Source: Candidatus Borrarchaeum weybense (GTDB taxonomy: Archaea; Asgardarchaeota; Sifarchaeia; Borrarchaeales; Borrarchaeaceae). Taken from it: a stretch of 64,000 nucleotides of DNA. The stretch's first letter is position 1. Each line of letters starts with the position of its first letter. The stretch is taken from NCBI GenBank assembly GCA_019057385.1, contig JAHQJS010000004.1, positions 514,118 through 578,117 on the forward strand, read 5' to 3'. Below the pieces are notes generated by a model. The model had not been told where the DNA came from. It saw only the letters and a program-made list of their open reading frames with translations, and searched no databases. Shown here one piece after another: positions 8,154 through 25,637 of the stretch. Both the position numbers and the translations under genes were made by a program.

Positions 8154-8909
8154 ATGCAGAAGCATCATAAGACGGCGAAATCAATGGAAAAAACTAAAAA
8201 TAAAAAGTTAGCCAAAAAAAAGTCACTTTTTATTATGATACCTGCTTATAACGAAGAAAATTCGATCGCTGAAGTCATTCATAGAGCTAATAATATTAAA
8301 ATAAACAATGTTGAAATTATCACTCTTGTCATAAATGATGGCTCTAAAGATAACACTGAACGTTTAGCAGCAGAATCAGGAGCAGATTTAATTGTGTCAC
8401 ATAAAGTTAATAGAGGTCTAGGGGCAGCAATACGGACTGGTGTCGAAAAATCATTAGAAAACGGGGCTGATATGGCTGTTATGTTAGATGCTGACGGTGA
8501 GTATACACCAGAAGAAATTCCAGCATTAATTAAATTGATTTTACGCAATGAAGCTGACTATGTGTTAGGATCACGATTTATGGGATCAATACTTAAAATG
8601 AAAGTCCAAAGACGACTTGGAAACCTGTTTTTGACGGCACTTCTTATGTTATTTACGGGGCGACGAATTTCAGATGGACAAACTGGTCTACGGGCATTTA
8701 GTAAACGTGCTCTACAAAATTTGGAGATTGTGCACGATTATAATTATGCACAAGTACTTACAATCGATTTACTAAGAAAAGGATATCGACTCAAGGAAAT
8801 TCCGATTTCCTATTCTTTCAGAAAAACAGGAAAAAGCTTTGTACGCTTTAAATCATATGCGTTGAAAGTTTTTCCAGCAATGATTAAAGCACGACTCCGG
8901 CGTTTGTGA
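8154..8909 (+). CDS. GT2-family glycosyltransferase (dolichyl-phosphate sugar synthase-like)
   Basis: Motifs IMIPAYNEENSI, NDGSKDNT and DADGEY are the GT-A/GT2 signature. A T6 run follows the stop directly. Confidence 0.85.
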   Translation: MQKHHKTAKSMEKTKNKKLAKKKSLFIMIPAYNEENSIAEVIHRANNIKINNVEIITLVINDGSKDNTERLAAESGADLIVSHKVNRGLGAAIRTGVEKSLENGADMAVMLDADGEYTPEEIPALIKLILRNEADYVLGSRFMGSILKMKVQRRLGNLFLTALLMLFTGRRISDGQTGLRAFSKRALQNLEIVHDYNYAQVLTIDLLRKGYRLKEIPISYSFRKTGKSFVRFKSYALKVFPAMIKARLRRL

Positions 8910-9040
8910 CTTTTTTCGTCCTCATACCTGTCATCCATTCCCGTCGTAGAAGGCGTCAGACCTCTCGGGTTCAGTCTCATGCACAAGAACGTGTTCTCCG
9001 CGTGTTGCGAGGAACATTCCGTCTTGTAGTTGGCATATTG
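8902..9040 (-). ncRNA. Structured RNA element, copy A (unclassified family; omega-RNA-like by similarity to 24596-24862)
   Basis: About 85-90 percent identical to copy C (reverse-oriented at 48731-48860) outside one hairpin, which differs by compensatory changes. The antisense strand would carry T5-T8 runs, so the minus strand is favoured. Confidence 0.65.
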
Positions 9041-9104
9041 TCCAGCAACTATGAAAAGTAAAAGTATTATGCAGATCATTTTTTAAGCTCCATGTTAAAT
9101 ACTT

Positions 9105-9644
9105 CTAAAAGCCTCCTAAGTCATCTATGTAGAGATTAACCATTAAGAGTAAGTGATTTTTTAATGATGAAAAACCGAATTTGAGTGCTTCATTGATCCG
9201 ATTAAGTGTTTGAGACTTATAGATATAGGAATAGAGGGCATAAAGAGAGTATTGGCGTGTTTCGATCTCTTTTTTTAGGGTATCAAAATGAATTTTTGTT
9301 GTTTCAGTTACGCGGTAACGTGAAGGAGCGGAGAACCTGAATTTTCGTGAGATGCTGGAGGAAAATCTATCGTAGTATTGTAGGGTGGAAAGTAAAGGTA
9401 ACTCTCTGTAATCTAATTCGTAATTATGATGATTCTTAACCAATTGATAGATATAGTCATCGGAGATTTTGACCTCTGTATAGATTTTACTTGGATGTCT
9501 TTCAGTATTGACGAAATCGTGGAGAAGCATGGCGATCATCAGTTTTTGCATTGCATCTGAGAAGTTTGTTGGAAGCATTTTTCTGATCTTGATTTTTTTT
9601 GGAGAATAGAGGGGTTTCTTTTGAAGTTTTTCATTTCCTGCCAT
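9105..9644 (-). CDS. Helical protein with an HD-like motif (MLLHDF, NHHNYE); probably the C-terminal part of a frameshift fusion with 9539-9916
   Basis: This ORF overlaps the upstream Cas6-like ORF by 106 nt in the -1 frame. An HD dipeptide in a hydrophobic helix is the only catalytic-looking motif. Confidence 0.45.
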   Translation of the reverse strand: MAGNEKLQKKPLYSPKKIKIRKMLPTNFSDAMQKLMIAMLLHDFVNTERHPSKIYTEVKISDDYIYQLVKNHHNYELDYRELPLLSTLQYYDRFSSSISRKFRFSAPSRYRVTETTKIHFDTLKKEIETRQYSLYALYSYIYKSQTLNRINEALKFGFSSLKNHLLLMVNLYIDDLGGF

Positions 9645-9916
9645 TGTATTTGCCCCATGCCTTCATGGGTGTATCTTCCGATGCTATCTAGGGCAAGTGC
9701 TTCATCAAGTTTATATTCTGGAGCGATGACTTCAATATTGCCATACCAAGCCCTAAAAGTCATAGGTGCTCGTCTTTCACCCTTTGTAAGTTTGCCAAAC
9801 ACTCGTGGGCGTCCTTGAATGGTGACGATACCGATGTTTTTGAGTCCAAACCGATTTCTCTTAGCGACTACAGGTGTTTTAGTTATCCCCAGTAATTTAA
9901 TCCAGTTTTTTGTCAT
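9539..9916 (-). CDS. Cas6-like RAMP fragment (single RRM-like fold with a glycine-rich loop)
   Basis: FRAWYGNIEVIAPEYKLDEALALDSIGRYTHEGMGQIQW resembles the C-terminal Cas6 signature (G-x-G...GMGQ). An AGAGGAA SD lies upstream of the ATG. Confidence 0.5.
   Translation of the reverse strand: MTKNWIKLLGITKTPVVAKRNRFGLKNIGIVTIQGRPRVFGKLTKGERRAPMTFRAWYGNIEVIAPEYKLDEALALDSIGRYTHEGMGQIQWQEMKNFKRNPSILQKKSRSEKCFQQTSQMQCKN
9593..9600 (-). other. A8 homopolymer forming an A_AAA_AAA slippery heptamer at the junction of the two overlapping ORFs
   Basis: The minus strand reads CTC CAA AAA AAA TCA. A -1 slip (or one extra A) gives ...SILQKK-IKIRKMLPTNF..., a 270-aa fusion. Confidence 0.5.
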
Positions 9917-9960
9917 CGTTATTCCTCTTTATGAATAGTATCCCGTTATTAACATTTTAA

Positions 9961-10010
9961 CGGGATATCTAAACGTATCGGTTTTTTTACCTTTTCTTCG
10001 TAAATTGGAT
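9961..10010 (-). promoter_or_regulatory. Promoter block upstream of the Cas6-like ORF (TATA-like GTTTAGATATCCCG, an A-rich tract, then a hairpin ATCCCGTT/AACGGGAT and an SD)
   Basis: About 70 percent identical to the block upstream of the RAMP gene (11023-11092). The TATA-like box lies about 45-55 nt before the ATG at 9916. Confidence 0.5.
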
Positions 10011-10145
10011 ATCACTTTTATCGTCCCTTGGCTGTCATCCATCCCCATCAATACTAGAGGCGTGGGACCTCTTAGATGGTTCAGTCTCATACGCAAGAAC
10101 GTGCTCCTCACAATGTGAGAGAAGCATACCGTCATGGATGAGAAA
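10011..10145 (-). ncRNA. Structured RNA element, copy B (same family as copies A and C)
   Basis: Shares the blocks CACGUUCUUG.G.AUGAGACUGAAC, AAGAGGUC...CCUCU and GGAUGGAUGACAG with copies A and C. It lies between the RAMP gene and the Cas6-like ORF. Confidence 0.65.
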
Positions 10146-10193
10146 AAAGAAGAGTAGAAGAATATTGCAGAGTCTTCGATCATTTATCTCCCT

Positions 10194-10979
10194 TCAAGCG
10201 TCTAATGCGTCTAAAATTGTCCTCCAATCCTCAATTTCATCAAATTCAATTGATTCCGCTTCGATTTCTTCATTGACCTTATAGATACCATTGTTTCTTT
10301 TTACGGTCTTGATAACTTCAATTTTTAGAAGATCAAAGTCCAAAAGTTTAACCTGTCCATAGCCTGCGTTCTTACCGCCTCCAAGCGTTTCGATGTATAG
10401 CAATGACTCCATGAGGAATTTAATCTCTTCTTTAGTCAGAAGAGTTACATCAATAGAGAATGTGAAATAGCCACTGAAATAACTTTCACGAAAATCTTGG
10501 ATAGGTATACCCTCATAACTTAACGCTATCCTATTTTCGCTCAAGATATGAACTCTTTGCACCGCTACATCAGTATTATATTCTTTATGAGAGATAGAAG
10601 TAATAGGATCAGCATAGACAGAAATCCGGGATTCTTCGCGAAAACTACCAAAGATTCTTCGGAGAATACAGGGAGTATCACACGCACCAAATGGATGAAA
10701 CCCGTTAGGAATGAGTTTAGTGCCGTCTTTGAGTTCGGTTTTTTCACTGGTATGACAGACTTCGATACCACAATCTTGAGCCAGCGACATGGCGGCATGT
10801 CTTAGCATGCCACGCAAACCTTTGATATAATATACTTTGGTATTGAAGGTCTTTTCTCCATTTATATAAGGAATTTCACCGAGAAGCAACATGGTAGAAT
10901 TTTTCTGTATGGAGGCATTCAGGGGTTTGGCAATAGGGGTAAAGGCTCGAACCACAAGTTGTTTTTTTGTTTTTTTCAT
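10194..10979 (-). CDS. RAMP superfamily protein, type III-like Cas7 (Csm3/Cmr4-like)
   Basis: IKGLRGMLRHAA (the G-x-lR motif after beta1), the Cys pair plus CILRRIFGSF (Csm3-like C..C..FGS) and LGGGKNAGYGQVKL (the C-terminal glycine-rich loop). Confidence 0.65.
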   Translation of the reverse strand: MKKTKKQLVVRAFTPIAKPLNASIQKNSTMLLLGEIPYINGEKTFNTKVYYIKGLRGMLRHAAMSLAQDCGIEVCHTSEKTELKDGTKLIPNGFHPFGACDTPCILRRIFGSFREESRISVYADPITSISHKEYNTDVAVQRVHILSENRIALSYEGIPIQDFRESYFSGYFTFSIDVTLLTKEEIKFLMESLLYIETLGGGKNAGYGQVKLLDFDLLKIEVIKTVKRNNGIYKVNEEIEAESIEFDEIEDWRTILDALDA

Positions 10980-11022
10980 CTTTCTAACCTCGTTTAAATC
11001 TCAATAATAACTTTTGCAACTA

Positions 11023-11092
11023 GATATATAAACCTATCGCTTTTTCTACCTTTTTTTAGTAAAATGGATGATTTTATACGCTTCTTTTTGAA
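11023..11092 (-). promoter_or_regulatory. Promoter block upstream of the RAMP gene (TATA box TTTATATATC, A-rich tract), paralogous to 9961-10030
   Basis: The minus-strand GGTTTATATATCTAG lies about 45 nt before the ATG at 10979, and a GAGGT SD lies 7 nt before the ATG. The block aligns with the 3' tail of RNA copy B. Confidence 0.55.
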
Positions 11093-11535
11093 AATAAAGC
11101 GTTTTAAAGACGTTTTTTTGTATATTACTGGAAACATACGAAAAACCTTTGTTAATTTAGGTAAAACCTTTTTTGTATTAATAATGTCTTAAGTAAAAAG
11201 GAAAAATATTTGCAAAAATGGAGATATTCTGGAAGAATAAAAAGTGCAATAAGAATGGTCTATACTTGTTAAGTGTCATCAATTGTGCTTGAAATTATTT
11301 ATGCTTTATTTTAAAATTTCTTATAATCGCGCATTAGGTCGCTCAAAAACACCTTTCTCCCCCACTCATAGTACTTGGGGCGTTCTGTGTTACTATTGCA
11401 GGGTTCAAATCGTGTGCATCGGCTGTCCTTTAGCGCAACTGGCATATATGCAGTCTTACATCCAATTACATTTCCAGTCTGACAAGTTCTCTTGAAGAAG
11501 CCGTGTCTTTTATAGGGAGGACACTTACTTTTCTC

Positions 11536-14500
11536 TTAAGAACTACCTAGGAGTTTTCGGCGTTTCATAACTAAATTCACTAGACCTGGTACGAAATCTT
11601 CATTTATTTGGACTATTGAGCCAAGTGATGTGTCCTTTTCTCGAAAAATACCTGCAGAGCAGATTCTTGCCCATGCATTACGATTCTCCTTATACGGACG
11701 AAGCTTGGCCGAGAAAATCTCTTTGTTGGGAATATTCCCCTGAATATCAATAAACTCTTCCAAGACATCATATAGCACTTCTTTAATAGGGCCACGGATT
11801 CCTCCCCGGCCAAAAATGGTTAATTCATCGGGAATATCGCTTGAACCTGCAATTAGCAATGCCAATTTCTCTGAATCGGATACTTCAGGAATTTTATCGA
11901 ATCTAAACTGCCAATCTGCGAATATCCTCATTATATAAGGCTTTTTTGCCAATTTTAATTGTGTTTCTGACATCTTCGAGGAATCTAAGCCATATTTCAA
12001 AGCGGCGGTCTTTAACTCATCGTTTGTAAACTCATTTAAAATTAAACTTGCTTTATCAATTATTGAATTCGAAGGCTTTCCTCGGAAAATATAGCTGTTT
12101 AAATCATGCTTTACACGATTAATATATTCATTAGCGCTCCAGTCAGCGGTTCTACAAGATATAATAGTAGGTACCCCTTCGGTGGCAAGACGCATTACAG
12201 TGTCTTTTAGCAGAGGTAAGATGAATTCTGGTCTTTCCACTTCATCTATGCCATCAATTATAACAAGTAGATTTGCATTTTTTTCCTTTAATGTGCTAAA
12301 CATCTGTTTCAATACATTAAATGCATCGAGCATGACAATAGATCCAAAAAACGCTTGTACAGTCTTGGTTACGTTCTTTCTAGCGCTGAAAAAAAGAGGA
12401 ACAATTTGTCCTTTAACGGTGATAGTTTTCATGAGTTCATTTGCCTTATGTGCAAGAAGCCATGTCTTCCCGATGCCCATGTCCGAAAGTAAAAGGAAAA
12501 TTTTACGCTCCTCGCCGATTGGTAGTGTAGCAATTTCAATAAATTCATCAATTGCCTTTTCGGCATCAACGCGAGGTTCATATTTTTCATCACTATAGGC
12601 GATTTCGAATAAACTCGAAAATGAAACTGTGTTGAGAAAACATTTTGATAGAAAAATAATATTTTCGGTGTTTAGATCCTTAGATATATTTTTAGATAGT
12701 ATACTAACTACACGATCAAGATTTTTTTCAAGATTCTTGATATTTGTACGTACATCATCTAATCGTCTCTTAGTATCTTCTGTATTCGATTCCAATAGAT
12801 TTATAATGACATTAATACTTTCTTCGAGTTCTTGCTTTACATCTAAAGAAATATTACTTATTTCATCTTCCATCCATGCTCTTAGTGTTTCAATTGCTTC
12901 GAAAGGTTTTTTTGAAGCGAAATCAATTGCTTTATTGAATCCATTTATGATCGGACGAAGAGAAGTATCGATAATCAATTTTAGTTTGTCCTCATCAATG
13001 TTAGCATTTATTTCCTCAAGTTTCTTATTTATTAGATCTTCGATTCCTCTGAAGGATGCTTTCTTCATTGCTTCCTCAATATTTTCGGTAATCGATGTTT
13101 CATCAACCTTGATACCAAAAGAAGAAATTTTATTCGATATCAACTTTCCTATATACCCTGCAGCCGGAGGACAAACCATGCCAACGAGCATAGAACCCAC
13201 AGCAGGCAAACATTTGAGGCCTATCTCGCCAAGTGTTTTTCCTGCCTTCTTAAGTATATCTCTTATCTTCTTGAGACGTCCTTCATCTTTTTCAGGTTGA
13301 TAACTCTCTGAAATCGCATCAGAATCAACTTCTTGATCGTTTGTCAGAATAGGAGGCGTAATTGGAGTTTGTGGTTGAGTTGTTCGAGTTTCTATTTCTT
13401 TTTGTTCTTCAACAATTATTTTCTTAGTTTTTTCAATTTCCTCCATTTCTATTGTCTCTGTTTGCTCTAGCGTTTCACTTGTAAGAAGCGCTTGTGCCTC
13501 TTTTGCTTTGTAGATGGCCCCTGGTTCACCTTTTATTGTGTATTTGATCTCTACCATTCGATCTGGTTGGATATTCTTGATGGACCATTCTAAGACGGTG
13601 AAGCTCTTGCCTTCGACCAGTCTCGGTCGTTGATCAGTCAGCTCTGGCGAACTTGAAACCAGTATAAAGCCTTCAGGCAAGATATCGGCGATGGTGATGT
13701 CCTGAAGGGTAACTTCGTCATCAGGCTTCAGTTTATTATGATAGTAGATAGTAATAGCATATTCACCTTCTGTATCACCTTCTTGGATCGATTTTCCAAC
13801 ACGAGCTTTACGCCAAACATGCTCCTTTACAGTAAGTTTATCTTCTGCAATGGCACGAAGTTCTTCATGTTCGGAAAATGGTTCTAAAACATTACCTACT
13901 ACTGAAACTGGTACAACAAGTTCGACTCCAGGTTCCGGTTCTACTGCTTGAAGGAGGTAATCTATTTTAACACAATCCTTTGGATTAATAGCTTTAATTG
14001 CAACCAGTTTATTAATATTTGAGAGGGATAAAATCAATTTTCTTTCCTTTGATAAATCTCTCCCCCCTTTCTCAGTAATTTTTACTGCTCCAGTAATATC
14101 TTGTTGATAATCTGATTCTCGTATAAGACTTGCTTTGATAGAGTCGATATTAAAACCTGGAGGGATCGTTTCATAAAAAGTAAGATCATTTAAAGGTGCA
14201 GAACCAGTATTACATGCCTTTAAGGTAGTCTTAATAGGATTTTCTTCGATTGCGTTAATTCTTTTTACTTCATATGATTTTTCTACTTTTATATCTGCTA
14301 CTTTAACTAAACCACCATATTGTACTACAGAGCCAGTGAGTTCTCTCAGAAAATTGTTTTTAACTGAAAAGTCAACTTTTTGTCCAAAGCTAGGAAATTC
14401 CATAATTGGATCTTCTTTTGGATCAGGGAACACGAAAGTCTTGGTCCATTTATTCTCGGTGTCAGGACTAAGAGTTACGTAAAGGCTATCCTCACTGATT

Positions 14501-15549
14501 ACTAAATGTTCTCGTCGATCTGATCTTTTTCTAAATATAGTTTCTTCGGCAGTCTGTCGATAGACTTCCACTTCGCGGAGCATTATTTCAAACGTGGAAA
14601 GGTTTTCAAATTCAATCGCACAGTTCCAGCGACCCGGGACGTTGTCAATCTCATCTTTATCGATCCAAGTAACATTTTTGGTGTAGCCTTCTAGACCAAG
14701 AAAAATAATATCTGACATCGTTGTATCTGGTGTTGCGAAACTTATAGAAATTTTGCCTGTATTTAGTGGGACTACTGTTTCTGCTTTTAAAAAAACTCCA
14801 AATGTTATTGATTTTGATTCATTAGGAGCTAAACTAAATCCAGACCAAAAGATCTTGTCAGTCTCTCTTTTATAATCTCCATCTGCTCCCTTTAAGTCCA
14901 TAACTTCCCTGAAAGCTTCAGGCAATTCTTTAACAAAAATAATGTTTTCTAAATTCGTTTTTGATTTATTAATAACCATAATCGTAACTCTGACCGCAGT
15001 TTCTTTATTTCTTATTAGTATTTTTGGCATAGTCTCTGATTCTGGTTCAGTATCTATGTATTCCTCAATTATCAGAGGTGATTCAATATCTTTTGAAACA
15101 GGAGTTCTCAAAGAATAATTTTTAAAGAATAATTCGCTGGGTCTAAGTTCTTGGATGTTTATATTGCACAGACCCTCCCTAGCTGATAAATTGGTCTTTG
15201 AAATATTTTCCCAGTAACTATCGAGATTCCAAACGCTATCTCGTTCGTTTGGATTGTAAAAACCAACACTTCCTGATGTTTTAATAGTTTCTGTTCCATC
15301 TGCTTGAAAAACAGCATCTATTCTTTCAGAGTTGATAACAAGAATTCGTTTATTATTTTTAGCGCCAACTATTTTCCAGGCTTTAGGTATATCTTTCTCA
15401 GGCATATGTTCCAAGTCTAGTTTTTTAAGATCGACAACTACCCTTCCCTTTGGTATCTCGAATAAAATTGGACCTTCAAGTATTTTTGGAACATAATTTG
15501 CCATTTCGGCATTTCCTCTTCTATTTTTCCTGACTATTTGTTTAGACAA
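11536..15549 (-). CDS. Giant STAND-type NTPase with N-terminal beta-sandwich (DUF11/CARDB-like) repeats, a coiled-coil/hydrophobic linker and a C-terminal NACHT-like P-loop domain
   Basis: Walker A LLLSDMGIGKTWL and Walker B NLLVIIDGIDEV. Repeated segments such as NTGSAPLNDLTFYETIPPGF and ITIADILPEGF are typical of DUF11-like Ig folds. Confidence 0.7.
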   Translation of the reverse strand: MSKQIVRKNRRGNAEMANYVPKILEGPILFEIPKGRVVVDLKKLDLEHMPEKDIPKAWKIVGAKNNKRILVINSERIDAVFQADGTETIKTSGSVGFYNPNERDSVWNLDSYWENISKTNLSAREGLCNINIQELRPSELFFKNYSLRTPVSKDIESPLIIEEYIDTEPESETMPKILIRNKETAVRVTIMVINKSKTNLENIIFVKELPEAFREVMDLKGADGDYKRETDKIFWSGFSLAPNESKSITFGVFLKAETVVPLNTGKISISFATPDTTMSDIIFLGLEGYTKNVTWIDKDEIDNVPGRWNCAIEFENLSTFEIMLREVEVYRQTAEETIFRKRSDRREHLVISEDSLYVTLSPDTENKWTKTFVFPDPKEDPIMEFPSFGQKVDFSVKNNFLRELTGSVVQYGGLVKVADIKVEKSYEVKRINAIEENPIKTTLKACNTGSAPLNDLTFYETIPPGFNIDSIKASLIRESDYQQDITGAVKITEKGGRDLSKERKLILSLSNINKLVAIKAINPKDCVKIDYLLQAVEPEPGVELVVPVSVVGNVLEPFSEHEELRAIAEDKLTVKEHVWRKARVGKSIQEGDTEGEYAITIYYHNKLKPDDEVTLQDITIADILPEGFILVSSSPELTDQRPRLVEGKSFTVLEWSIKNIQPDRMVEIKYTIKGEPGAIYKAKEAQALLTSETLEQTETIEMEEIEKTKKIIVEEQKEIETRTTQPQTPITPPILTNDQEVDSDAISESYQPEKDEGRLKKIRDILKKAGKTLGEIGLKCLPAVGSMLVGMVCPPAAGYIGKLISNKISSFGIKVDETSITENIEEAMKKASFRGIEDLINKKLEEINANIDEDKLKLIIDTSLRPIINGFNKAIDFASKKPFEAIETLRAWMEDEISNISLDVKQELEESINVIINLLESNTEDTKRRLDDVRTNIKNLEKNLDRVVSILSKNISKDLNTENIIFLSKCFLNTVSFSSLFEIAYSDEKYEPRVDAEKAIDEFIEIATLPIGEERKIFLLLSDMGIGKTWLLAHKANELMKTITVKGQIVPLFFSARKNVTKTVQAFFGSIVMLDAFNVLKQMFSTLKEKNANLLVIIDGIDEVERPEFILPLLKDTVMRLATEGVPTIISCRTADWSANEYINRVKHDLNSYIFRGKPSNSIIDKASLILNEFTNDELKTAALKYGLDSSKMSETQLKLAKKPYIMRIFADWQFRFDKIPEVSDSEKLALLIAGSSDIPDELTIFGRGGIRGPIKEVLYDVLEEFIDIQGNIPNKEIFSAKLRPYKENRNAWARICSAGIFREKDTSLGSIVQINEDFVPGLVNLVMKRRKLLGSS

Positions 15550-15622
15550 CTAAATAAATTTACTTATAAAAAACACAAAAAAAGAATTAATTCACTAAAC
15601 CGATAAGGAAATCTTAACTAAA

Positions 15623-17356
15623 TCACTCAACAATTCTAGATTTCCTAAGAAATCCAATTAAAACTCCTCCTATGATGAAACAAGCGAGTAACAGAAAAAG
15701 GACCAGGTACACAGCGAACTGTGGTGGAACAACATAAAACAGATACAGAAGGAATCCACAACTGAATAATCCGTTAATTATGCCAGTCTTCAATCCTGCA
15801 TTTTTTAAGTTCAAGGATGTTTTCCTAAGACTAATAAATCCACTCAGCACTCCTGCAATGAGGAAACAAGAAATAATTCGAACGATTTGTAAAATTATCT
15901 CAGAAGGCATAGGAATAACAAATAAAATGACTACTAATATCACAATTCCTGATATCCCACCGTTAACCATGTCTGTGGTTGATGGTCGTTGAATGCTGAG
16001 ATCGGGATAGTCTTTTAAATCCTCTCCAATGAGAAATTTCAAACGATCCATTACCATCCATTTAGAGGTTACAAAATCAAAATAAATTCCAATGGCAGCA
16101 ATAATCGAAGCAATTAAAAGGAAGTGTGGCAATAAATCTACCCCAAAGTAAACAATGAATAATCTTGATGAAAGATAAGTTACTAAAAGAACGCCGAGAC
16201 CCAATACAATAGGATGGAATATTCTCTGTAAACGAGAGTATTTTCTGAAGAAATCCAGATCTTTATTTTTTACAGCCCAATCTTGCTTGACATGAATATA
16301 AGAAAGTGATGGAACGGCGCCTACAAGGAATGCCACGGTAAGAATAATTGCTCTTAAGACAAACAAGACATCGTGAGAAGGAATATTACTTGGCATTTGT
16401 TGTGTTAAAAAGTCTAAAAAGGGCACAACCATCGGCTGTAGCATCGCTAATATAAAAGCAACAAGATATGGGAGAAATATTATAAAACAGCGATTCCAGT
16501 TCTCCCACTCATTACGAATTCCAAGGAAAGCGATCATGAAAGGAATGATTATTAGAATCATAAAAAGAAGTTGAGAGCTCTCAAAATAATTTAGAAATCG
16601 AAGATTCATCCCAACAATAATAGCATTGGCGACTAACGAAACTACTAACCAACTAGTCTGAATCGTTTGGTCGCTTTTTAGCCAATTTCTCCAAAAATGC
16701 TTTTCAATTTGTCCTTTGTAGCGCATTGTGTCTTTCAATGCACCAATAAAAGCCCTTGGTGTCTCGATAGTTCCTAGTAGAACTAAGAAATTGAATACAG
16801 AGAGAAAAAGTATCACTGCGGAGAATATTTTATCCCCTCCAATGGCAAGCCATACCGTTATCAAAATGAAGGTGTCAAAAGCCCGCTCGTACGAATAATA
16901 CTCCTTATATTCTAGAAAATCAAGTTTTCTTTTAAAATATGTTGAATATAGTTTAGTTGCACCCAACCATCCCATGAACCCCATAAACATTAATCCAAAA
17001 GAGAAAATAGCCGGGAGAAACTCATTATTTAGCGCATGTATTAACAACCTTTCGGAAGCATTCGCAAAGATACTTGTAGAGAAAAACACAAATCCGCAAA
17101 TTACGGAAATAAGTAGTCGTGATCTCAACTCTTCATTTCGAAGTACATCTTCTGGATTCTTCTCGAAAACCATTTTTGGAAGATGAAATTGGTAAATACC
17201 TATTGTCAAAATAAGACTTGCAAGTAGAAAGGTATATTCAAAGTTGAATAGACTTAAAACGACAGATAAAACACTTAGCAGGATAGTTATAAGCGAAACA
17301 AGAAGATTCTTAATATTCAGTTCTTTTGTTTTACTCTTAGAATCAATACTCCCCAT
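15623..17356 (-). CDS. Polytopic integral membrane protein (about 14 TM helices), function unknown; co-oriented just upstream of the NACHT gene
   Basis: Hydrophobic helices run throughout. I recognised no catalytic motif. Confidence 0.6.
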   Translation of the reverse strand: MGSIDSKSKTKELNIKNLLVSLITILLSVLSVVLSLFNFEYTFLLASLILTIGIYQFHLPKMVFEKNPEDVLRNEELRSRLLISVICGFVFFSTSIFANASERLLIHALNNEFLPAIFSFGLMFMGFMGWLGATKLYSTYFKRKLDFLEYKEYYSYERAFDTFILITVWLAIGGDKIFSAVILFLSVFNFLVLLGTIETPRAFIGALKDTMRYKGQIEKHFWRNWLKSDQTIQTSWLVVSLVANAIIVGMNLRFLNYFESSQLLFMILIIIPFMIAFLGIRNEWENWNRCFIIFLPYLVAFILAMLQPMVVPFLDFLTQQMPSNIPSHDVLFVLRAIILTVAFLVGAVPSLSYIHVKQDWAVKNKDLDFFRKYSRLQRIFHPIVLGLGVLLVTYLSSRLFIVYFGVDLLPHFLLIASIIAAIGIYFDFVTSKWMVMDRLKFLIGEDLKDYPDLSIQRPSTTDMVNGGISGIVILVVILFVIPMPSEIILQIVRIISCFLIAGVLSGFISLRKTSLNLKNAGLKTGIINGLFSCGFLLYLFYVVPPQFAVYLVLFLLLACFIIGGVLIGFLRKSRIVE

Positions 17357-17803
17357 CCCGTAATCTCCATTTGAAATATTTTTCTTAAGTTAGCTTCCAC
17401 TGCGTTGTTGTTGGAACAATATTCAAGAAAAATGTTGCTGTTACCAAAAAGTAACTAACAAATATAACGGAATATCTAATAATATCCTTAATCTCTAATT
17501 CTTCCAAGATAATCCCCCGTTTACGAAAGATTAGGACGTCTTTATGTTTACATATATAAAATCATTCTGCTTGTTATAATTTTCGTGAAACAGCGTTTTA
17601 TTAAATAGTAGAGTTCACGAAACTAATTACAAAACATCCTATGATTAAAATATTGGATCTTTTTATGATATGAAGAGGATCTCAGGAAAATAATCAGAGA
17701 ACTCATGGTAGGAATTTATAAAAAAGGATAGATTTGAGTTTTAAAACAGGACTGATAGTAAAGTTATTTGTACTAATTTCACTCCAGTTCTCTTATCAAT
17801 TCA

Positions 17804-18028
17804 TTATGTTGGTGGTATGTCCCTTATATCTTCGATTTTCCAAGTTGCGTAGTTAAAAGCGAAGAGTAATGTTAGGAAACTACTGATTGTAAATCCGAAA
17901 CAAAGTCCAAGAAAAGCAGAACTTATGTCTAAACTAAGTGTAAAGGCATAAGCGAGAACAATCGAAATAATTGAGAAAGAGAAGAAGAACGTTATTAGTA
18001 TAATCATCATACTAATAACTCTACTCAT
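17804..18028 (-). CDS. Small membrane protein (2 TM helices), hypothetical
   Basis: The ORF contains two clear hydrophobic helices. It is isolated in an AT-rich spacer. Confidence 0.3.
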   Translation of the reverse strand: MSRVISMMIILITFFFSFSIISIVLAYAFTLSLDISSAFLGLCFGFTISSFLTLLFAFNYATWKIEDIRDIPPT

Positions 18029-18190
18029 GCTTCGAATTTGGCTCCGTTCACGATCTCTACCCTGCTTTTCATAATTTCTCTCAAAAACTTCTCGAACGTC
18101 GTATGCATTTTTTAGAAGGAAAGTAGCAAAAATGCCTCCAATACCGAATAAAGAATCAACTAAACAAAAGGTATTCTACAGTTGAGATAA

Positions 18191-19135
18191 ATGAGTTTAC
18201 GAAAAGATATTTACCCTAATGCTAAGCAAAGAGATTTAGATCGTATCCTCCCTCAGTTAGTAACTGAGATTCTCAGAGCCTTTCAGTCTTGTTTTACATC
18301 AGAACAAGACCTCATACAGTTCATCAATAGACTTCCGAGCAGAGAAATTGTAGAACTCTTTCTTGATTCGGGAAGGTTTTATGCCGTCAGTAAAAGTGTC
18401 ATCACAGAGCCCTTTGTGAAGTTAATAATGATCTTTTCGATGATTGAGCGATTAACTTCAGCAGAAATACCATATACTGAATTTAAAAATTGGATACGTG
18501 AGAATGAAGTGCTCAGAGCAGCAGTTGAAGAAAATCCTGACATATCAGACTTCCATCTTTCATCTCTCAAGCAACTCATAGATAGTCTAAGAGAGAAATA
18601 TAATGAGATCTACGGCTTCGTAAGAAACATACTCTCATATTTCACGGAATATATTGCTCTTAGACATCAGATAATGATCATCGCCTCAATACATGTGAAA
18701 GACACAGAGATTTTAAGAAGATATCCTGATCAGGTAACTGGGGTACAGCCATATTCTGTGACTATTTCAGATTTTGCCACTGAACATAATCTTGAAACAT
18801 CAAAGGGATATATGCCTGTTTGCTATGACTGGAGACAATGCTGTGTAGATGTTAATACATGCTGTTGGCGTTCCAAAAAAACGTGCAGATTGTGGATAGA
18901 TGACGAAGAGCGCATCAAGAGGCTTAAAACAACAATAAAGTTATTGTATGACTTTAGAAGTGTATTTGTTCATCGTGCAGAACTGCCACCTTTTAGTGAA
19001 CATCCAACATTTGGAATGTATAAACATAATAAGAAATGGAGAGATTGCCTTATTCTGTTAAAGTCATCAGAATTTGAAGCAATCTTTGAGGAATCATTTG
19101 TCGAATATTTTAAAAGCAAGATCGACCTCGAATAA
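18191..19135 (+). CDS. Hypothetical Cys-rich protein with a possible HEPN-like Rx4H motif
   Basis: LYDFRSVFVHRAE contains R-x4-H. There is a Cys cluster CYDWRQCCVDVNTCCWRSKKTC. The protein looks otherwise helical. Confidence 0.35.
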   Translation: MSLRKDIYPNAKQRDLDRILPQLVTEILRAFQSCFTSEQDLIQFINRLPSREIVELFLDSGRFYAVSKSVITEPFVKLIMIFSMIERLTSAEIPYTEFKNWIRENEVLRAAVEENPDISDFHLSSLKQLIDSLREKYNEIYGFVRNILSYFTEYIALRHQIMIIASIHVKDTEILRRYPDQVTGVQPYSVTISDFATEHNLETSKGYMPVCYDWRQCCVDVNTCCWRSKKTCRLWIDDEERIKRLKTTIKLLYDFRSVFVHRAELPPFSEHPTFGMYKHNKKWRDCLILLKSSEFEAIFEESFVEYFKSKIDLE

Positions 19136-19152
19136 ACCGAAGTTGAATTAGA

Positions 19153-20310
19153 ATGTCACAAATTATTATGTCTCAGCCTAGAAATCCAGTAACAGCAACT
19201 TATGTGATTTTGGGATCTGCGATAGCCTATGTCATTTTCTGGAACTTCTCACAGGATATAGTGTCCAAACTATTGATCATTTCTGTGATCGGTGGTATGA
19301 TCACATCATCACTTTACTTCTTAGAACCAATCCAGTTCGTAGATAATCGCTATCTTAGAAACAAGTATGAAAAAACCATTCTTCGAGACTTCAAAGAATA
19401 TACTGAGGTCACATTTGAAAACACCTTTAAAGAACCGTATTTCGATGCCGACAGGAATAATATTTATGGATCGCTTTATCTTTCTTTGGCGATCTGCGTA
19501 GGCGCTGTAGGTACGATATTCATAAATCCCTCTGTTCCCATTTGGATTCCAGTAATTTCACTTTTTATCACATTAACATTGTTAATTAACGGCATCTACT
19601 TGATTACGCTAAGGACAGAAAAAATAGAATTGGTTCACTACATACTCTCCTTAGAGAGATACACCTTAATGGAGAAAAGTGATATAGGCTATCCTTACGC
19701 TCCTATAGAGAAAATCAAGATTGAACTTGCTTCACGGAGGTGGGTATCTGCACGCAACATCCTTAAGCAACACACTGAAACCGTATATGCTAGATTAAGA
19801 AACATTCGTTCCAAATTACAAGGGAATAAATGGAGATGGCAAAATACCAAAATCACAGTTGAAGAAATAAAGAAAGGATTTGGGAGTAACTCTCCTTTTG
19901 AAGATGAAGTTAAGTCATATTTGAGTAATGCCAAATTAGGCAGGACATGGCTTTTTCTCCTTGATTTAGATCTCCGTGAGTTTTCTAAGAAACTTGATGA
20001 ATTGGCTAGTTTCTTACAAGCAAAAAAAATGGATCTTGTATCGATCTTACATTCTAAAACTATAATCAAAATTATGGAAAGCAAGAAAAAAGATCTATCA
20101 TATTTCTATAGTGATGAGACGTTTAGCCCAGATAAGGAGGTCAATTACAGAAATCTCCAGGAAAGTTTAACGGGCGATGATATTCCGTCTCTTATTGAGG
20201 TTAAAGAAGCCATTATAGCAATTAAAGGACTTAAACCGACTTTTGATGAAATAATTCAGAAGATTGAGGCAGTAGAAGATGTTCATTTAACAGTTAAAAA
20301 AAATGATTGA
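19153..20310 (+). CDS. Hypothetical membrane protein (4 N-terminal TM helices and a helical cytoplasmic domain)
   Basis: It starts 18 nt after the preceding gene, so the two are a probable operon. Confidence 0.5.
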   Translation: MSQIIMSQPRNPVTATYVILGSAIAYVIFWNFSQDIVSKLLIISVIGGMITSSLYFLEPIQFVDNRYLRNKYEKTILRDFKEYTEVTFENTFKEPYFDADRNNIYGSLYLSLAICVGAVGTIFINPSVPIWIPVISLFITLTLLINGIYLITLRTEKIELVHYILSLERYTLMEKSDIGYPYAPIEKIKIELASRRWVSARNILKQHTETVYARLRNIRSKLQGNKWRWQNTKITVEEIKKGFGSNSPFEDEVKSYLSNAKLGRTWLFLLDLDLREFSKKLDELASFLQAKKMDLVSILHSKTIIKIMESKKKDLSYFYSDETFSPDKEVNYRNLQESLTGDDIPSLIEVKEAIIAIKGLKPTFDEIIQKIEAVEDVHLTVKKND

Positions 20311-20454
20311 ATTAAGGTTCACCAATTTGTGCATAATTCGTAACATTATCATAGAAAAAGATAAATTTAATATGGTGAAACATTTCCTATTTCACAATCA
20401 CAACTTATTCTTAGCGGGTTATTAGCAAGAGGTCATTTTTGGAGTAGATATGTC

Positions 20455-21501: not shown

Positions 21502-21644
21502 AGTTACTCATTGAAATCGCCACTGGGGCGATTTAGGGTAGAGTAACTAACTTTATGATCATCTCGCTGCATAGACTTGTACAATTTAGTTTGTCATCTA
21601 ATTCCGAACATTCTGTAAACTTCATTATTAAATCTCCTCTATCT

Positions 21645-21938
21645 TTACAACATTGGCATAAAGACGTCGCTTAATAGCATCTTCTGTACAGCCTTACAGG
21701 TCAGCGTTTTTGAGATTGCACATTTTTCTTCTTCATTGCGGAATAAACAATGAAGTTCCAAAACAATATTCCATGTCTTTTTTTGTAAAACGTTCATCTC
21801 CTGAAGTATTCTAATGAGCAGGCTAATTTCACGTCATTCTTCCTTGTATTTGTCATAAACACCTTTAGCTTTGTCTAAATTGCTATATTCGTATTTTTCG
21901 AAAACATCTAAATATAATAATCCTACGAATCTCTTCAT
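21645..21938 (-). pseudogene. Small helical ORF interrupted by a single in-frame TGA (34 aa + TGA + 62 aa)
   Basis: A strong GGAGG SD lies 8 nt before the ATG at 21938. The in-frame TGA is at 21834-21836 and the reading frame continues to a TAA at 21645-21647. Confidence 0.35.
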
Positions 21939-21973
21939 GTCGTTTTCCTCCAAAAAATGTTTTAAACCGAAAT

Positions 21974-22012
21974 GAGCGCCCCCGTCGGGATTCGAACCCG
22001 CAATCTGCCGCA
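21974..22012 (-). tRNA. tRNA 3' half (T-arm plus 3' acceptor strand); the 5' half is not identifiable next to it
   Basis: The minus strand reads GCGGGTTCGAATCCCGA-CGGGGGC-G, a canonical GTTCGAATC T-loop. A possible 5' piece (GCGCCCATAATCTCAAGTTAGGCAGAG, about 22133-22160) does not pair cleanly with the acceptor strand. Confidence 0.45.
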
Positions 22013-22186
22013 AGATAAATCGTCATCAAACGTTTCTTGGGCGATCAATCTTCAAAACGTTCTAGTGAAGCATCTATCATACACAGTACGCAAGAAACAA
22101 TCTCATTCTTGCAATATCGAAAATTTCTTTAGAACTCTGCCTAACTTGAGATTATGGGCGCATGTTTAAAAAAAAGAAATAGAGCG

Positions 22187-24325
22187 TTACGTATAGTATA
22201 TTGGCTGCGTTATATCGTCGCTACTTACACATGGTTGTACATTCAACCTGTTTGCCATATTCACCGCGTCCTCTGGAGTGCCATAATAGATATAAAATCC
22301 GTATATCGCCTCTGGACGTGCGTTGTCTTCTTTAAAGTAAATATTGTTGCTATCTAAAATAACTGATGTATATCTAGTTGTCTGAACGCTTATTAAACTA
22401 ACATTGTTTCCTAGATAAATCCAGCCATTAGATAAAAATAATTGACATTCTTTCGCCATAAAATCGCGTAAATTGAATATTCGTCCATTTGACATTGGTG
22501 AATATGCTATGGCGTCATCTGTTACGTTGAAATATACCCTATTTGCAACGATGTCGGATGTATTTAACTCTAGTGTTACGTAATATAATTTATCATTATA
22601 TTTGGTAACGTCTAATGTATAATTCTTAAATGAACATGTAACGTTGATTGGTAGTTCTCCTGCTGTTCCCTCAGGCGTCGTCGGATTATAGTATAATGTA
22701 TTTGTGCGTGTATCAATTACAACTGGTTGAGTAATATCTAACGATTGTAATAATGAATCTACAATCTTCTCCGATTCTGTAATAACATAGTTGCTGTAAT
22801 CTATCGAATATTCTACTTCACACTCTCTTGGAGTCCATCCTGTTGAATCGGATACCTCAGCAAGAAGTAGTATCTTCCATAATTTATTTATATCTTCCTG
22901 TATCGATGTATTAACGCCAGAAATGTTTGACACGTACTTAAATGTCGCCTCAGCCGATAGTAATGATGTTCTGGCTTGATACCGTAATGTCATTATTTCG
23001 ACATCTCGTTCATATCTATTGCGCTCTTCTCCCGACCATAAATAATTGCCGCCTTGAGTGACACATGGAATTTCTGGAATCTGTTTAACTGGTATATTTC
23101 TTTCTAAGCATACATCAACTAATTGCGAAATCGTTAAATATTGCGAATTGCGGCTATCGTAATCTCGTAATATATCTTCATACCTATGTTGCTTCTCTTT
23201 GACGTATGTGAAATCGTTCTTATTTTGATATGTATTAACTTGCTCTCCATCGTCGTAATACAACCACTTATATCCGAACGGTTCCGTAGTGCTATTATCG
23301 TCTATTTTAACGTCCCTGTTGAAAATTATGTAGGAATCGTTATTTGATTGGCAAAGTCCGTAATGTTTAAATGTATCGTTTGCATCTATATTATAATAAT
23401 TATTATAAGTAGCCGTTATCATTACCAAAGTTGTATATCCATAATCTTTCATAATTTCTTTTAATGCGGGTGAATACTGCCACTCCTGACAGCCAAATAT
23501 AGGACTTCGCGTAAGATTATATTTTTTTAATATTTCATCTGATATTTCAATTGATTTCCTTAATTCTAATTCGGGGTACGCAATAAAAAGTTGATCGGAA
23601 TAATGCGTAACAACTAACTCCAACTGACCCCGATCATGTAGTTTTTTAAACAACTCGAAAACATCGGGGTATTTTTCAGCCATGAGTTCTATACCTAAAC
23701 TTTGTATTTCGAATGTGAACGCGTATTTGGGATATCTCTCATACATCAAAAGTAAGTTTCTGATAGATCCGTTAACGATACGTTCTTCTGATATAGGATC
23801 GCCCGCTCTAAACTGCGGGTTAAAATGAAAATATGATACATAAAATTCTGCCTTATTTAATGGTACAGAATGGGTAGATGTTGTATGTGCGATAATGCTT
23901 ACTACTTTTTTATATACATTAGAAACGCCATATACCTCATAGTATAGCACATATATATTTTCGCCAGCGTTCTCAACAATTGTTTTGCGTGCAACCTCTG
24001 ATTTACCCCAAGAAGTTAGTATAACTATCTGAGTATCTACAGGCTTTGGTGTTGCGTTTGATTCGTCAACAATTTTTAATGTTACATGTTCTGGCTTATC
24101 TGATACAGAATGTAGTCTAATGTTTAATGTAATATCATCCCCAACTGTAACATAATCATCTACATCAGTTGTAAAATCGTCGATGACTATTGAATTTGAG
24201 GTATTAACGCCAACCATTTTAAATGCTAACATTTGCGTAGTGAATACGCTAGAAAGGATTACAAACGCGAGAATGCACAGAGGAATAACCGTAGGCGGTA
24301 TTATCCTATATGGCGCACAATGCAT
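22187..24325 (-). CDS. Secreted or membrane-anchored carbohydrate-active protein, GH57-like
   Basis: It has an N-terminal signal/TM segment. YFHFNPQF, RGQLELVVTHYSDQLF and FGCQEWQYSPALKEIMKDYGY resemble GH57 barrel motifs. Confidence 0.4.
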   Translation of the reverse strand: MHCAPYRIIPPTVIPLCILAFVILSSVFTTQMLAFKMVGVNTSNSIVIDDFTTDVDDYVTVGDDITLNIRLHSVSDKPEHVTLKIVDESNATPKPVDTQIVILTSWGKSEVARKTIVENAGENIYVLYYEVYGVSNVYKKVVSIIAHTTSTHSVPLNKAEFYVSYFHFNPQFRAGDPISEERIVNGSIRNLLLMYERYPKYAFTFEIQSLGIELMAEKYPDVFELFKKLHDRGQLELVVTHYSDQLFIAYPELELRKSIEISDEILKKYNLTRSPIFGCQEWQYSPALKEIMKDYGYTTLVMITATYNNYYNIDANDTFKHYGLCQSNNDSYIIFNRDVKIDDNSTTEPFGYKWLYYDDGEQVNTYQNKNDFTYVKEKQHRYEDILRDYDSRNSQYLTISQLVDVCLERNIPVKQIPEIPCVTQGGNYLWSGEERNRYERDVEIMTLRYQARTSLLSAEATFKYVSNISGVNTSIQEDINKLWKILLLAEVSDSTGWTPRECEVEYSIDYSNYVITESEKIVDSLLQSLDITQPVVIDTRTNTLYYNPTTPEGTAGELPINVTCSFKNYTLDVTKYNDKLYYVTLELNTSDIVANRVYFNVTDDAIAYSPMSNGRIFNLRDFMAKECQLFLSNGWIYLGNNVSLISVQTTRYTSVILDSNNIYFKEDNARPEAIYGFYIYYGTPEDAVNMANRLNVQPCVSSDDITQPIYYT

Positions 24326-24334
24326 TATTTTCCC

Positions 24335-24592
24335 TCATGTCATATGCAGTTCAGCAAGATAAATCCTTTTCGAATCTCTTGCATTTCTTAAATACTGCGT
24401 GTTTTCTTGTTGTAGAACCTGTACCTGTCCAGTAAAAACAGACGTAAATAATAAATAAAGAAAAAATAAAGATGAAAATTTTAATACATTATTTTGATAT
24501 CTTGCGTCTTGTAATAATTGCTTGCCTTTATGTTGGGTGGTAGGCATGAGCGGTTGACCTCTCATGTTTACCACATAGATAGGTACTCTCAA
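24335..24592 (-). pseudogene. Remnant of an IscB-like (IS200/IS605 OMEGA) nuclease; only the N-terminal PLMP segment survives
   Basis: A TTG start follows an AAAGGAGGAG SD. VPIYVVNMRGQPLMPTTQHKGKQLLQDAR matches the IscB/RRXRR N-terminal pattern (V-x-D/N-x-x-G-x-PLMP...LL). Beyond about residue 35 the sequence is AT-rich nonsense with no RuvC or HNH domain. Confidence 0.6.
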
Positions 24593-24595
24593 ATC

Positions 24596-24862
24596 CTATC
24601 TCCTCCTTTAACCTGCGTTACAGGAGGTCGGTTCTCCTCGCCAAAGTTATCAGTCAGTACTCTACGATGATCACTGAGCGTTTCCTCTCTGTTTAAACCA
24701 CCGTTTACAGAGCAAGGGACTAGAGAAGCATCCCTTGGTGTGTTCTTTAACTCTCCTGATAACGTAGATACCGTCATACACTATATGACCTCTCTTAGGC
24801 TAATCAACTAATTGCTCTCAGGTCTCACGGAACAAGCCCCTACCCTTTAGGGTGGTGGGGTA
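24596..24862 (-). ncRNA. Structured leader in the canonical omega-RNA (HEARO-like) position upstream of the IscB remnant
   Basis: GC content is locally higher and there is no credible ORF. Hairpins are dense: GUCAUA/UAUGAC, CAAGGGA/UCCCUUG, CUCUGU/ACAGAG, AGGAG/CUCCU and CCUG/CAGG. The leader ends at the SD of the PLMP ORF. Confidence 0.6.
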
Positions 24863-24869
24863 ATTGACT

Positions 24870-25637
24870 CTATGTTCGTTTCTTTTTGTAAGAGCGCCTA
24901 TATTTTTCGAAGTCAACAGAATCGTATACTTCTGCCATTTTGAAGAATATTGGGAAGAATTTTGCAACTTCAATGTCTTTGCTGATAAAGAAGATTGCGT
25001 TCAAACTGGATTGAGCCTCTTCATGATGTATAGCGAACCGCTTAATGTGGTCTCTGTATTTCAATAGAATTGCCCTTAATTGCTGCCCTTCTTTTGCAAG
25101 AAAGAGAGATCTAGCTGAGTACACCTCTGAACTTTTAACTAAAAATGCAGCATCAAATTTTTTGTCGATTTTAACAGTTTCAAGGTCAACTATTTCCTTG
25201 AACAAATCCTTTATGAGATGTTCTTCTTTTGGAATTACTTCTATCGTGATTGTTGCAGTCTTGCGAAGCGTTCCCATAAAAGCAAGTTTGTCTTGATCTT
25301 TTTGAAAATGATTAATTATTGGATGTAGTAGATTTTCACGATTCAATAAAACTAAGGCGACAGTAATATCTGACATGTATTTCTTTGGCACAGCATTGAT
25401 TCGAAAGCCCGACCCTCCTGCGTCTTCGTATTCCGCCTTTCCTTTCACATACTTTGGAACTACTTCTTCAATCTTTTTTGTGTATTTTTTCTTCAACCTA
25501 CGATTCTTTATAAACCCCACTATTATTGAGACCATAAATATTACGATTAGAGCACCAAAAATGATAATTTGGACGGTTAGAGGTATTGCCTGTATTATCT
25601 GTGCTAAAGCATCAAAAATTCCTTGTATCAGTATCAC
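24870..25637 (-). CDS. Hypothetical membrane-anchored protein (one N-terminal TM region)
   Basis: The ORF has a hydrophobic N-terminus. I recognised no motif. Confidence 0.5.
   Translation of the reverse strand: MILIQGIFDALAQIIQAIPLTVQIIIFGALIVIFMVSIIVGFIKNRRLKKKYTKKIEEVVPKYVKGKAEYEDAGGSGFRINAVPKKYMSDITVALVLLNRENLLHPIINHFQKDQDKLAFMGTLRKTATITIEVIPKEEHLIKDLFKEIVDLETVKIDKKFDAAFLVKSSEVYSARSLFLAKEGQQLRAILLKYRDHIKRFAIHHEEAQSSLNAIFFISKDIEVAKFFPIFFKMAEVYDSVDFEKYRRSYKKKRT

Follow-up and report, generated by a model that had tools for sequence, protein, structure and literature searches.

An orphan omega RNA and a truncated iscB start as the probable remnant of a decaying IscB insertion sequence beside a GH57-like gene in an Asgard archaeon

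The window analyzed here, a stretch of 64,000 nt of archaeal DNA, contains a single match in an Rfam scan, to the HEARO family (RF02033), which is the omega RNA of IscB. The match lies on the minus strand at 24868..24627, with a score of 127.7 bits (E 4.3e-26; gathering score 83), and covers positions 1-211 of the 211 positions of the model, i.e. its full length. A structured leader had been predicted at 24593-24862 from the sequence alone, which is correct to within 6 nt, as the RNA starts at 24868. The omega RNA scaffold (24627..24868, minus strand) is 87-88% identical to copies that precede a full-length IscB. Directly 5' of the scaffold lies a flank of 16 nt, AAGAAACGAACATAGA (T1, 24869..24884, minus strand), which has a single exact match in the window and consists of the final codons and the stop (TAG, 24872-24870) of a 255-aa gene. 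In 12 copies of the family the upstream flanks vary up to GTCAATTAC, identifying GTCAATTAC as the boundary of the element and placing the flank in the guide position; the guide is described as located just outside the omega RNA and the transposon end (PMC10691335). As some Asgard archaea encode pyrrolysine (Pyl), reading of TAG as this amino acid was considered, and the standard reading was kept because TAG ends 8 of 42 long ORFs in the window.

The conserved 3' tail of the leader (24593..24626, minus strand), defined by alignment with nine other copies, contains the Shine-Dalgarno-like sequence AAAGGAGGAG before a TTG codon. This TTG, with its PLMP segment, is located 35 nt past the end of the Rfam match and opens an 85-aa ORF (24592..24335, minus strand) with the N-terminus MRVPIYVVNMRGQPLMPTTQHKGKQLLQ, the ribosome binding site, start codon and frame all being as originally predicted. 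The proposed IscB-type PLMP N-terminus was borne out by tblastn, in which residues 1-31 of two full-length Asgard IscB proteins aligned to 24592..24500 with 74-77% identity (E 4e-11 to 8e-11) and no further matches of these proteins were obtained in the 64 kb. Profile searches were positive as well, but under the cut-offs: residues 5-32 of the ORF resemble positions 1-28 of the RRXRR domain (Pfam PF14239; E 0.0012, 19 bits, cut-off 25), and residues 5-31 resemble positions 1-27 of guided_IscB (NCBIfam NF040563; E 0.0023), the weak scores being explained by the shortness of the fragment. A single protein homolog of the 85-aa ORF was found, a Candidatus Sifarchaeia MAG entry annotated as a partial "RRXRR domain-containing protein", with 81% identity over the first 31 residues.

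Comparison of the window with six full-length (~400 aa) IscB elements by blastn yielded an alignment of 24868-24507, at 87-88% identity, and nowhere else. Likewise, an nhmmer profile built from five complete elements covers 24868-24505 (E 1.5e-119, profile positions 1-366). The DNA breakpoint is therefore located at approximately 24507, and homology to IscB at the protein level ends after 28-31 residues. The expectation that homology would stop early, at about 35 residues, was right about the early stop and placed the end a few residues too far. What is left of iscB is the first ~28 of ~400 codons (MRVPIYVVNMRGQPLMPTTQHKGKQLLQ; 24507..24592, minus strand), which comprise part of the PLMP segment only, as judged from tblastn, Pfam and NCBIfam. 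In agreement with the predicted loss of the nuclease body, translated and profile searches of the whole 64 kb gave no match to RuvC, the bridge helix or HNH, and nothing past residue 31. The canonical hairpin of the far end of these elements was not found anywhere in the 64-kb window at up to 3 mismatches. In the window and the related loci retrieved, no TnpA-like gene was noticed close to the element. The HEARO match, the breakpoint and the tblastn alignment thus uphold the central claim of the original prediction, a decayed IscB/OMEGA element upstream of a GH57-like gene.

Past the breakpoint, an AT-rich spacer (24335..24506, minus strand; 29% GC) is found that has no homology to IscB elements and holds the open tail of the 85-aa ORF. 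No homolog of this tail was found among 5.8 billion proteins. The spacer includes the runs TTTTTT and TTTTT; T-runs of five or six are common transcript terminators in archaea. The ORF stops with TGA at 24337-24335, at the predicted distance of 9 nt from the ATG at 24325 of the GH57-like gene, and is in frame with this ATG, from which it is separated by TGA GGG AAA ATA (window 24323-24592). The frame of the 56-codon non-IscB tail is open in only 0.7% of shuffles. This openness is possibly due to chance, or possibly reflects some advantage gained when ribosomes translate as far as the GH57 start; taken together with the shared frame, it could hint that translation across the spacer is under selection.

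The GH57-like gene itself (22187..24325, minus strand) encodes a protein of 712 aa with a hydrophobic N-terminus, and its assignment was supported by Pfam PF03065 (31.9 bits, threshold 21.2). The omega RNA remnant, the 85-aa ORF and this gene are all encoded on the minus strand. Behind the gene follows another ~0.6 kb (21575..22186, minus strand). Within this region a tRNA T-arm-like sequence, GGGTTCGAATCCC, is present at 21987-21999 (minus strand), and a G-rich stretch resembling an acceptor comes after it. Neither ARAGORN, in default and intron mode, nor Rfam at E<=1 supported a tRNA at 21970-22160, and the motif may be a 3' fragment of a tRNA, for instance of an old attachment site. Adjacent to the ~0.6 kb we identified, from alignments with related loci, a sequence, T2 (21551..21574, minus strand; ..GCAGCGAGATGATCATAAAG), in which the 3' end of the 255-aa gene recurs in diverged form, such that an imperfect direct repeat of 17-24 nt (21551-21574 and 24869-24888) flanks a segment of 3.3 kb. 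T2 is followed by a small hairpin relic, TTAGTTACTCTACCCTAAATCGCCCCAGTGGCGATTTCA (21512..21550, minus strand), that resembles the omega-distal end of IscB elements and is followed by ATGA (21511-21508). This relic gave no significant nhmmer match with the profile of the full element, the piece being only 39 nt long.

To place these features, we examined the IscB element family in this group of archaea. A scan for the omega RNA core in one genome per species yielded 11 loci, in Ca. Sifarchaeum marinoarchaea and two Borrarchaeum/Borrarchaeota MAGs. HEARO is matched at 123-139 bits in 10 of the 11, and also in the Sifarchaeia locus L003. A full-length IscB (~400 aa) follows HEARO in six loci (L005, L007, L008, L009, L010, and L011); the HEARO loci lacking one comprise four that reach contig ends and one with a frameshifted gene. 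The latter, L012 (1811-3270) of Ca. Borrarchaeum yapensis, has its frameshift near residue 124 of IscB behind a HEARO of 123 bits, and is another decaying copy. The proteins of the full-length relatives contain RRXRR and HNH and score 350-360 bits on guided_IscB; the L009 protein gave Pfam HNH matches, and the proteins P0125 and P0068 score 352-361 bits on guided_IscB.

Complete copies of the family are ~1.53 kb in length and end in a terminal hairpin ~55 nt past the iscB stop. Between subfamilies (L005, L008, L009, L010, and L011) this distal hairpin co-varies with the first hairpin of the omega RNA, CCCCACCCTAAAGGG.. being paired with CTCCACCTTAAAGGG.. and CCCCCTAACAAGTTAGGGGG with CCCCCCAACAAGTTGAGGGG, which is consistent with both ends being read by one Y1 transposase. 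The copies are inserted 5' of ATGA, ATAA, ATTA, or ATGG, as seen for five full copies with both ends and one miniature copy, in agreement with the published target of ISC elements, N/ATGA (N/ATNA; the slash marks the junction) (PMC4810608). In the miniature copy, of ~360 nt (L014, 402-~765), a HEARO that has diverged (83 bits) precedes the first codons of IscB (LRVPVI), and the distal hairpin is followed by ATGA. This copy encodes no nuclease and is located just upstream of a PCNA-like gene in a Borrarchaeota MAG, indicating that true PATE-like standalone omega RNAs occur in the group.

Against the consensus structure derived with RNAalifold from 12 copies, the omega RNA of the window keeps 66 of 70 base pairs, compared to 68-70 in ten independent copies (all 70 in seven of these). 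Broken pairs thus number four, versus 0-2 in the ten others, and three of the four fall within one 8-bp hairpin. In this GNRA-capped hairpin 2, a block change of 5 nt (GAGCA to ACCTG) abolishes three pairs and converts two others to G-U pairs. A T-to-G change results in an A-G mismatch in a second GNRA-capped stem, and hairpin 1 is bulged by an insertion of 3 nt. The window copy has nine private alignment columns and the other copies 0-5, a comparison that is confounded by the absence of a sister copy from the same genome, as the other genomes each contribute several copies. The score of 127.7 bits is no lower than is usual for copies with IscB sequence behind them (123-139 bits, six of them full-length), so that the RNA may still be functional. 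The description of the leader as intact-looking therefore holds for its overall score and does not hold for one hairpin, which is largely disrupted. Judged by its sequence, the omega RNA is recognizable and might still fold, and it seems to have suffered somewhat more damage than copies linked to a functioning gene.

The same arrangement was found in assembly GCA_019058535.1 (L001), which is 99.9% identical to the window, with seven differences in 8181 nt. Four of the seven are located within 52 nt of omega RNA (24703, 24721, 24748, and 24755); this clustering suggests that copies have exchanged sequence by gene conversion, or that repeats were mixed up during assembly. The Logan contig L002, which contains the 255-aa gene, ends within the omega RNA at 24800. 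A scan of metagenomes with the 255-aa protein recovered four orthologous loci, with a nucleotide identity of 92-96% (L016 and L017), 88-93% (L018), and 78-85% (L019). In all four, the 255-aa gene and the convergent 348-aa gene (LPG_synthase_TM) are joined within ~10-50 nt. None of the four contains HEARO or the GH57 gene, and the ~0.6 kb at 21575..22186 is missing from them as well. The strain-specific segment (approximately 21575-24867, ~3.3 kb) accordingly extends from the omega RNA remnant through the spacer and the GH57-like gene to the end of the ~0.6 kb.

In a further relative (L015), an ortholog of the GH57 gene (620-2757; 87%) is located between the same two genes, in inverted orientation, with other junctions and without HEARO. 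It is preceded by 543 nt that are unrelated to the upstream region in the window and contain an in-frame stop. The GH57 gene therefore does not depend on the leader or the omega RNA, and, being absent from the four other relatives, it is an accessory gene at a variable rearrangement hot spot. Sensitive blastn and tblastx comparison of the flanks of the two GH57 genes gave nothing convincing in the way of a common cassette or a circular permutation, and a search for inverted or direct repeats accounting for the inversion yielded short, chance-level matches only. The remnant is known from one strain and its 99.9% identical assembly, and is missing at all five related loci recovered. Given this distribution, the GH57 gene of L015 that is inverted and lacks an omega RNA, and the highest numbers of broken pairs and private columns relative to the ten other copies, the suggestion made in the original prediction, that the RNA or its promoter had been retained or exapted, is not supported.

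The relatives also provide information on the history of the site. They keep the T sequence and, lacking the element, diverge after it: in L018 the bare site reads ..CGATCATAGA/ATTAGTAACT, followed by the stop of the 348-aa gene, and in L016 and L017 T is followed by AGGTC, which is not ATNA. The hairpin relic of ~39 nt, located before AT(G/T)A, is shared by the window, L016, L017, and L019. In L016 and L017 its last 20 nt plus flank (CCAGAGGCGATTTCAATGAG) are identical to the distal end and flank of the complete L011 element, and the window differs by 1 nt. Based on this resemblance, we read the relic as what probably remains of an earlier IscB element that had inserted at this target. Alignment from the 348-aa gene through the hairpin extends up to 21574 for L019 and up to 21565 for L016, and T2 is closer to the L019 junction (23/29, counted by eye) than to T1 of the window or to L016 (14/29). 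Transposition of IS200/IS605 elements does not generate a duplication of the T2 kind. T2 could stem from a single recombination event that was anchored by homology in the 255-aa gene and joined illegitimately at its other end, or from the unequal exchange of a filled with a collapsed allele.

Taking these data together, the locus probably preserves the omega-RNA end of an insertion sequence of the IscB type (ISC group, IS200/IS605 superfamily) and is an ordinary decaying remnant in a Sifarchaeia/Borrarchaeum-like Asgard archaeon. An element of ~1.53 kb, with omega RNA, a 400-aa IscB and a terminal hairpin, would have inserted between the two convergent genes, with its omega RNA end against the stop of the 255-aa gene and an opposite outer limit at ATGA, the usual target of ISC elements. 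A later rearrangement would have deleted iscB past codon ~28 and left the AT-rich spacer, the GH57-like gene and the ~0.6 kb in its place. The 85-aa ORF would then represent read-through from the old start into foreign sequence. With no nuclease and no adjoining canonical second end, the remnant neither cuts nor moves alone, and we infer that it is selectively neutral; any activity that remains would be limited to guiding an IscB encoded at another genomic site. The outer limits fit T/.../ATGA and the empty site of L018, CATAGA/ATTAG, yet a diverged second copy of T lies inside them. A simple history of insertion followed by deletion does not explain T2, which counts against the explanation that we favor.

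Residual guide function is an alternative that we consider unlikely. In this reading, the orphan omega RNA is expressed, for instance when transcription continues past the 255-aa gene, and loaded in trans by an intact IscB, which cuts insertion-free T + ATNA sites on chromosomes or incoming DNA and so favors the retention or recombinational copying of the 3.3-kb segment. Standalone omega RNAs work in trans with compatible effectors (PMC10691335), and PATE-like elements that bear omega RNAs have been described (Meers et al., preprint 10.1101/2023.03.14.532601). The full-length IscB P0125 (352 bits on guided_IscB) is recorded on a contig of 1,298,538 nt, which is also the length of the longest contig with the 85-aa ORF and the GH57 protein, so that an intact effector is likely present in the same genome, apparently elsewhere on the same 1.3-Mb contig. 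Moreover, the scaffold scores within the range of IscB-linked copies, the flank in guide position is intact, and an allele of the empty type, T + ATTAG with 1 mismatch in 16, exists in L018. However, the RNA carries a largely disrupted hairpin and an A-G mismatch in a GNRA-capped stem, the closest relatives (L016 and L017, with AGGTC after T) would not be targets, and the standalone omega RNAs described so far are mobilized units with both ends, as is the L014 miniature element, which the window copy is not. An extension of this idea, RNA-guided homing, in which the omega RNA at the segment border and a resident IscB cut empty T + ATNA alleles so that the GH57 passenger is copied or kept by recombination without transposon ends or a nuclease of its own, appears improbable to us.

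We regard exaptation in cis as equally improbable. Here the leader, the Shine-Dalgarno/TTG start or an internal promoter would drive or regulate the GH57-like gene, for instance by translational coupling via the 85-aa ORF; the co-directionality of all parts, the stop 9 nt before the GH57 ATG in the same frame, and a tail that is so rarely open in shuffles would suit it. Nevertheless, the 87% ortholog in L015 is preceded by its own upstream region with an in-frame stop and without HEARO, the T-runs of the spacer are of the terminator type, and conservation is limited to one strain. That 24868-21512 is one IscB-derived element with GH57 as passenger, reaching from the omega RNA end to the distal-type hairpin next to ATGA, is very improbable, even though the limits T/GTCAATTAC...GGCGATTTCA/ATGA fit a single insertion into a site such as that of L018 and GH57 is found at the same site in L015. 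The distal relic also occurs in L016, L017, and L019, all without omega RNA and GH57, and hence belongs to the site and not to the incoming DNA. In addition, it lacks the inner hairpin of functional ends, T2 sits between the cargo and the relic, the junctions and orientation differ in L015, and no second copy of the segment was found. Finally, the multi-copy omega RNA could have led to a collapsed or chimeric join linking unrelated flanks in the assembly. The break of L002 inside the omega RNA and the clustering there of the differences with L001 would be in line with such an artefact, but we deem it very improbable: the junctions are identical in two assemblies, both outer flanks are the expected syntenic neighbors, and GH57 is present at the locus in an independent relative. 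A truncated copy would be needed regardless, and must exist, as the breakpoint runs into unique sequence.

As a remnant of an insertion sequence, the locus is of an already known kind, a degraded ISC/IS200-IS605 element with an orphan omega RNA, and represents a new instance and not a new system. It shares with IscB/ISC elements (Kapitonov, 2016, PMC4810608; Altae-Tran, 2021, via PMC10691335) a HEARO directly upstream of the iscB start and the PLMP N-terminus, as well as an element boundary that coincides with the RNA's 5' end and leaves the flank in guide position, and, by its outer limits, a putative insertion 5' of ATNA. At their far end, the relatives have the subterminal hairpin that co-varies with the first omega RNA hairpin. 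Unlike these elements, the window has ~28 of ~400 codons, without RuvC, bridge helix, HNH or an adjoining canonical far end, and contains 2.9 kb of foreign DNA (spacer, GH57 gene, and ~0.6 kb) instead. With standalone omega RNAs and PATE-like derivatives of IS200/IS605 elements (PMC10691335; 10.1101/2023.03.14.532601) it has in common that no effector is encoded in cis and that an intact IscB is apparently present in the genome; in contrast to PATE-like elements and the L014 miniature, which keep both ends and are mobilized, it is a single copy whose second end is absent or degenerate. Relative to the RF02033 model, all major helices are recognizable in the full-length match, and the differences are the 3-nt insertion in hairpin 1, the 5-nt block change in hairpin 2 and the one A-G mismatch.

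These results document IscB/omega-RNA elements in intact, frameshifted, miniature and truncated form in Asgard archaea of the Sifarchaeia/Borrarchaeum type. The window would provide a clean case of element death, dated by comparison, in which the nuclease gene was lost first and the RNA end can still be recognized, and could be of use as a small case study of how elements decay at a target that is hit repeatedly. For annotation, it illustrates that a strong HEARO match together with a PLMP start is not proof of an active nuclease. If the orphan RNA were active in trans, it would constitute a natural guide RNA that protects a linked cargo gene.

Elsewhere in the window, a second and larger region, 8900-20332 (11.4 kb), is missing in L016 and L017, where positions 8899 and 20333 are contiguous. 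Two genes on the minus strand of this region encode a member of the RAMP superfamily (10194-10979) and a protein of 1337 aa (11536-15549) with a weak, below-cut-off match to NACHT, and the region is possibly a defense island.
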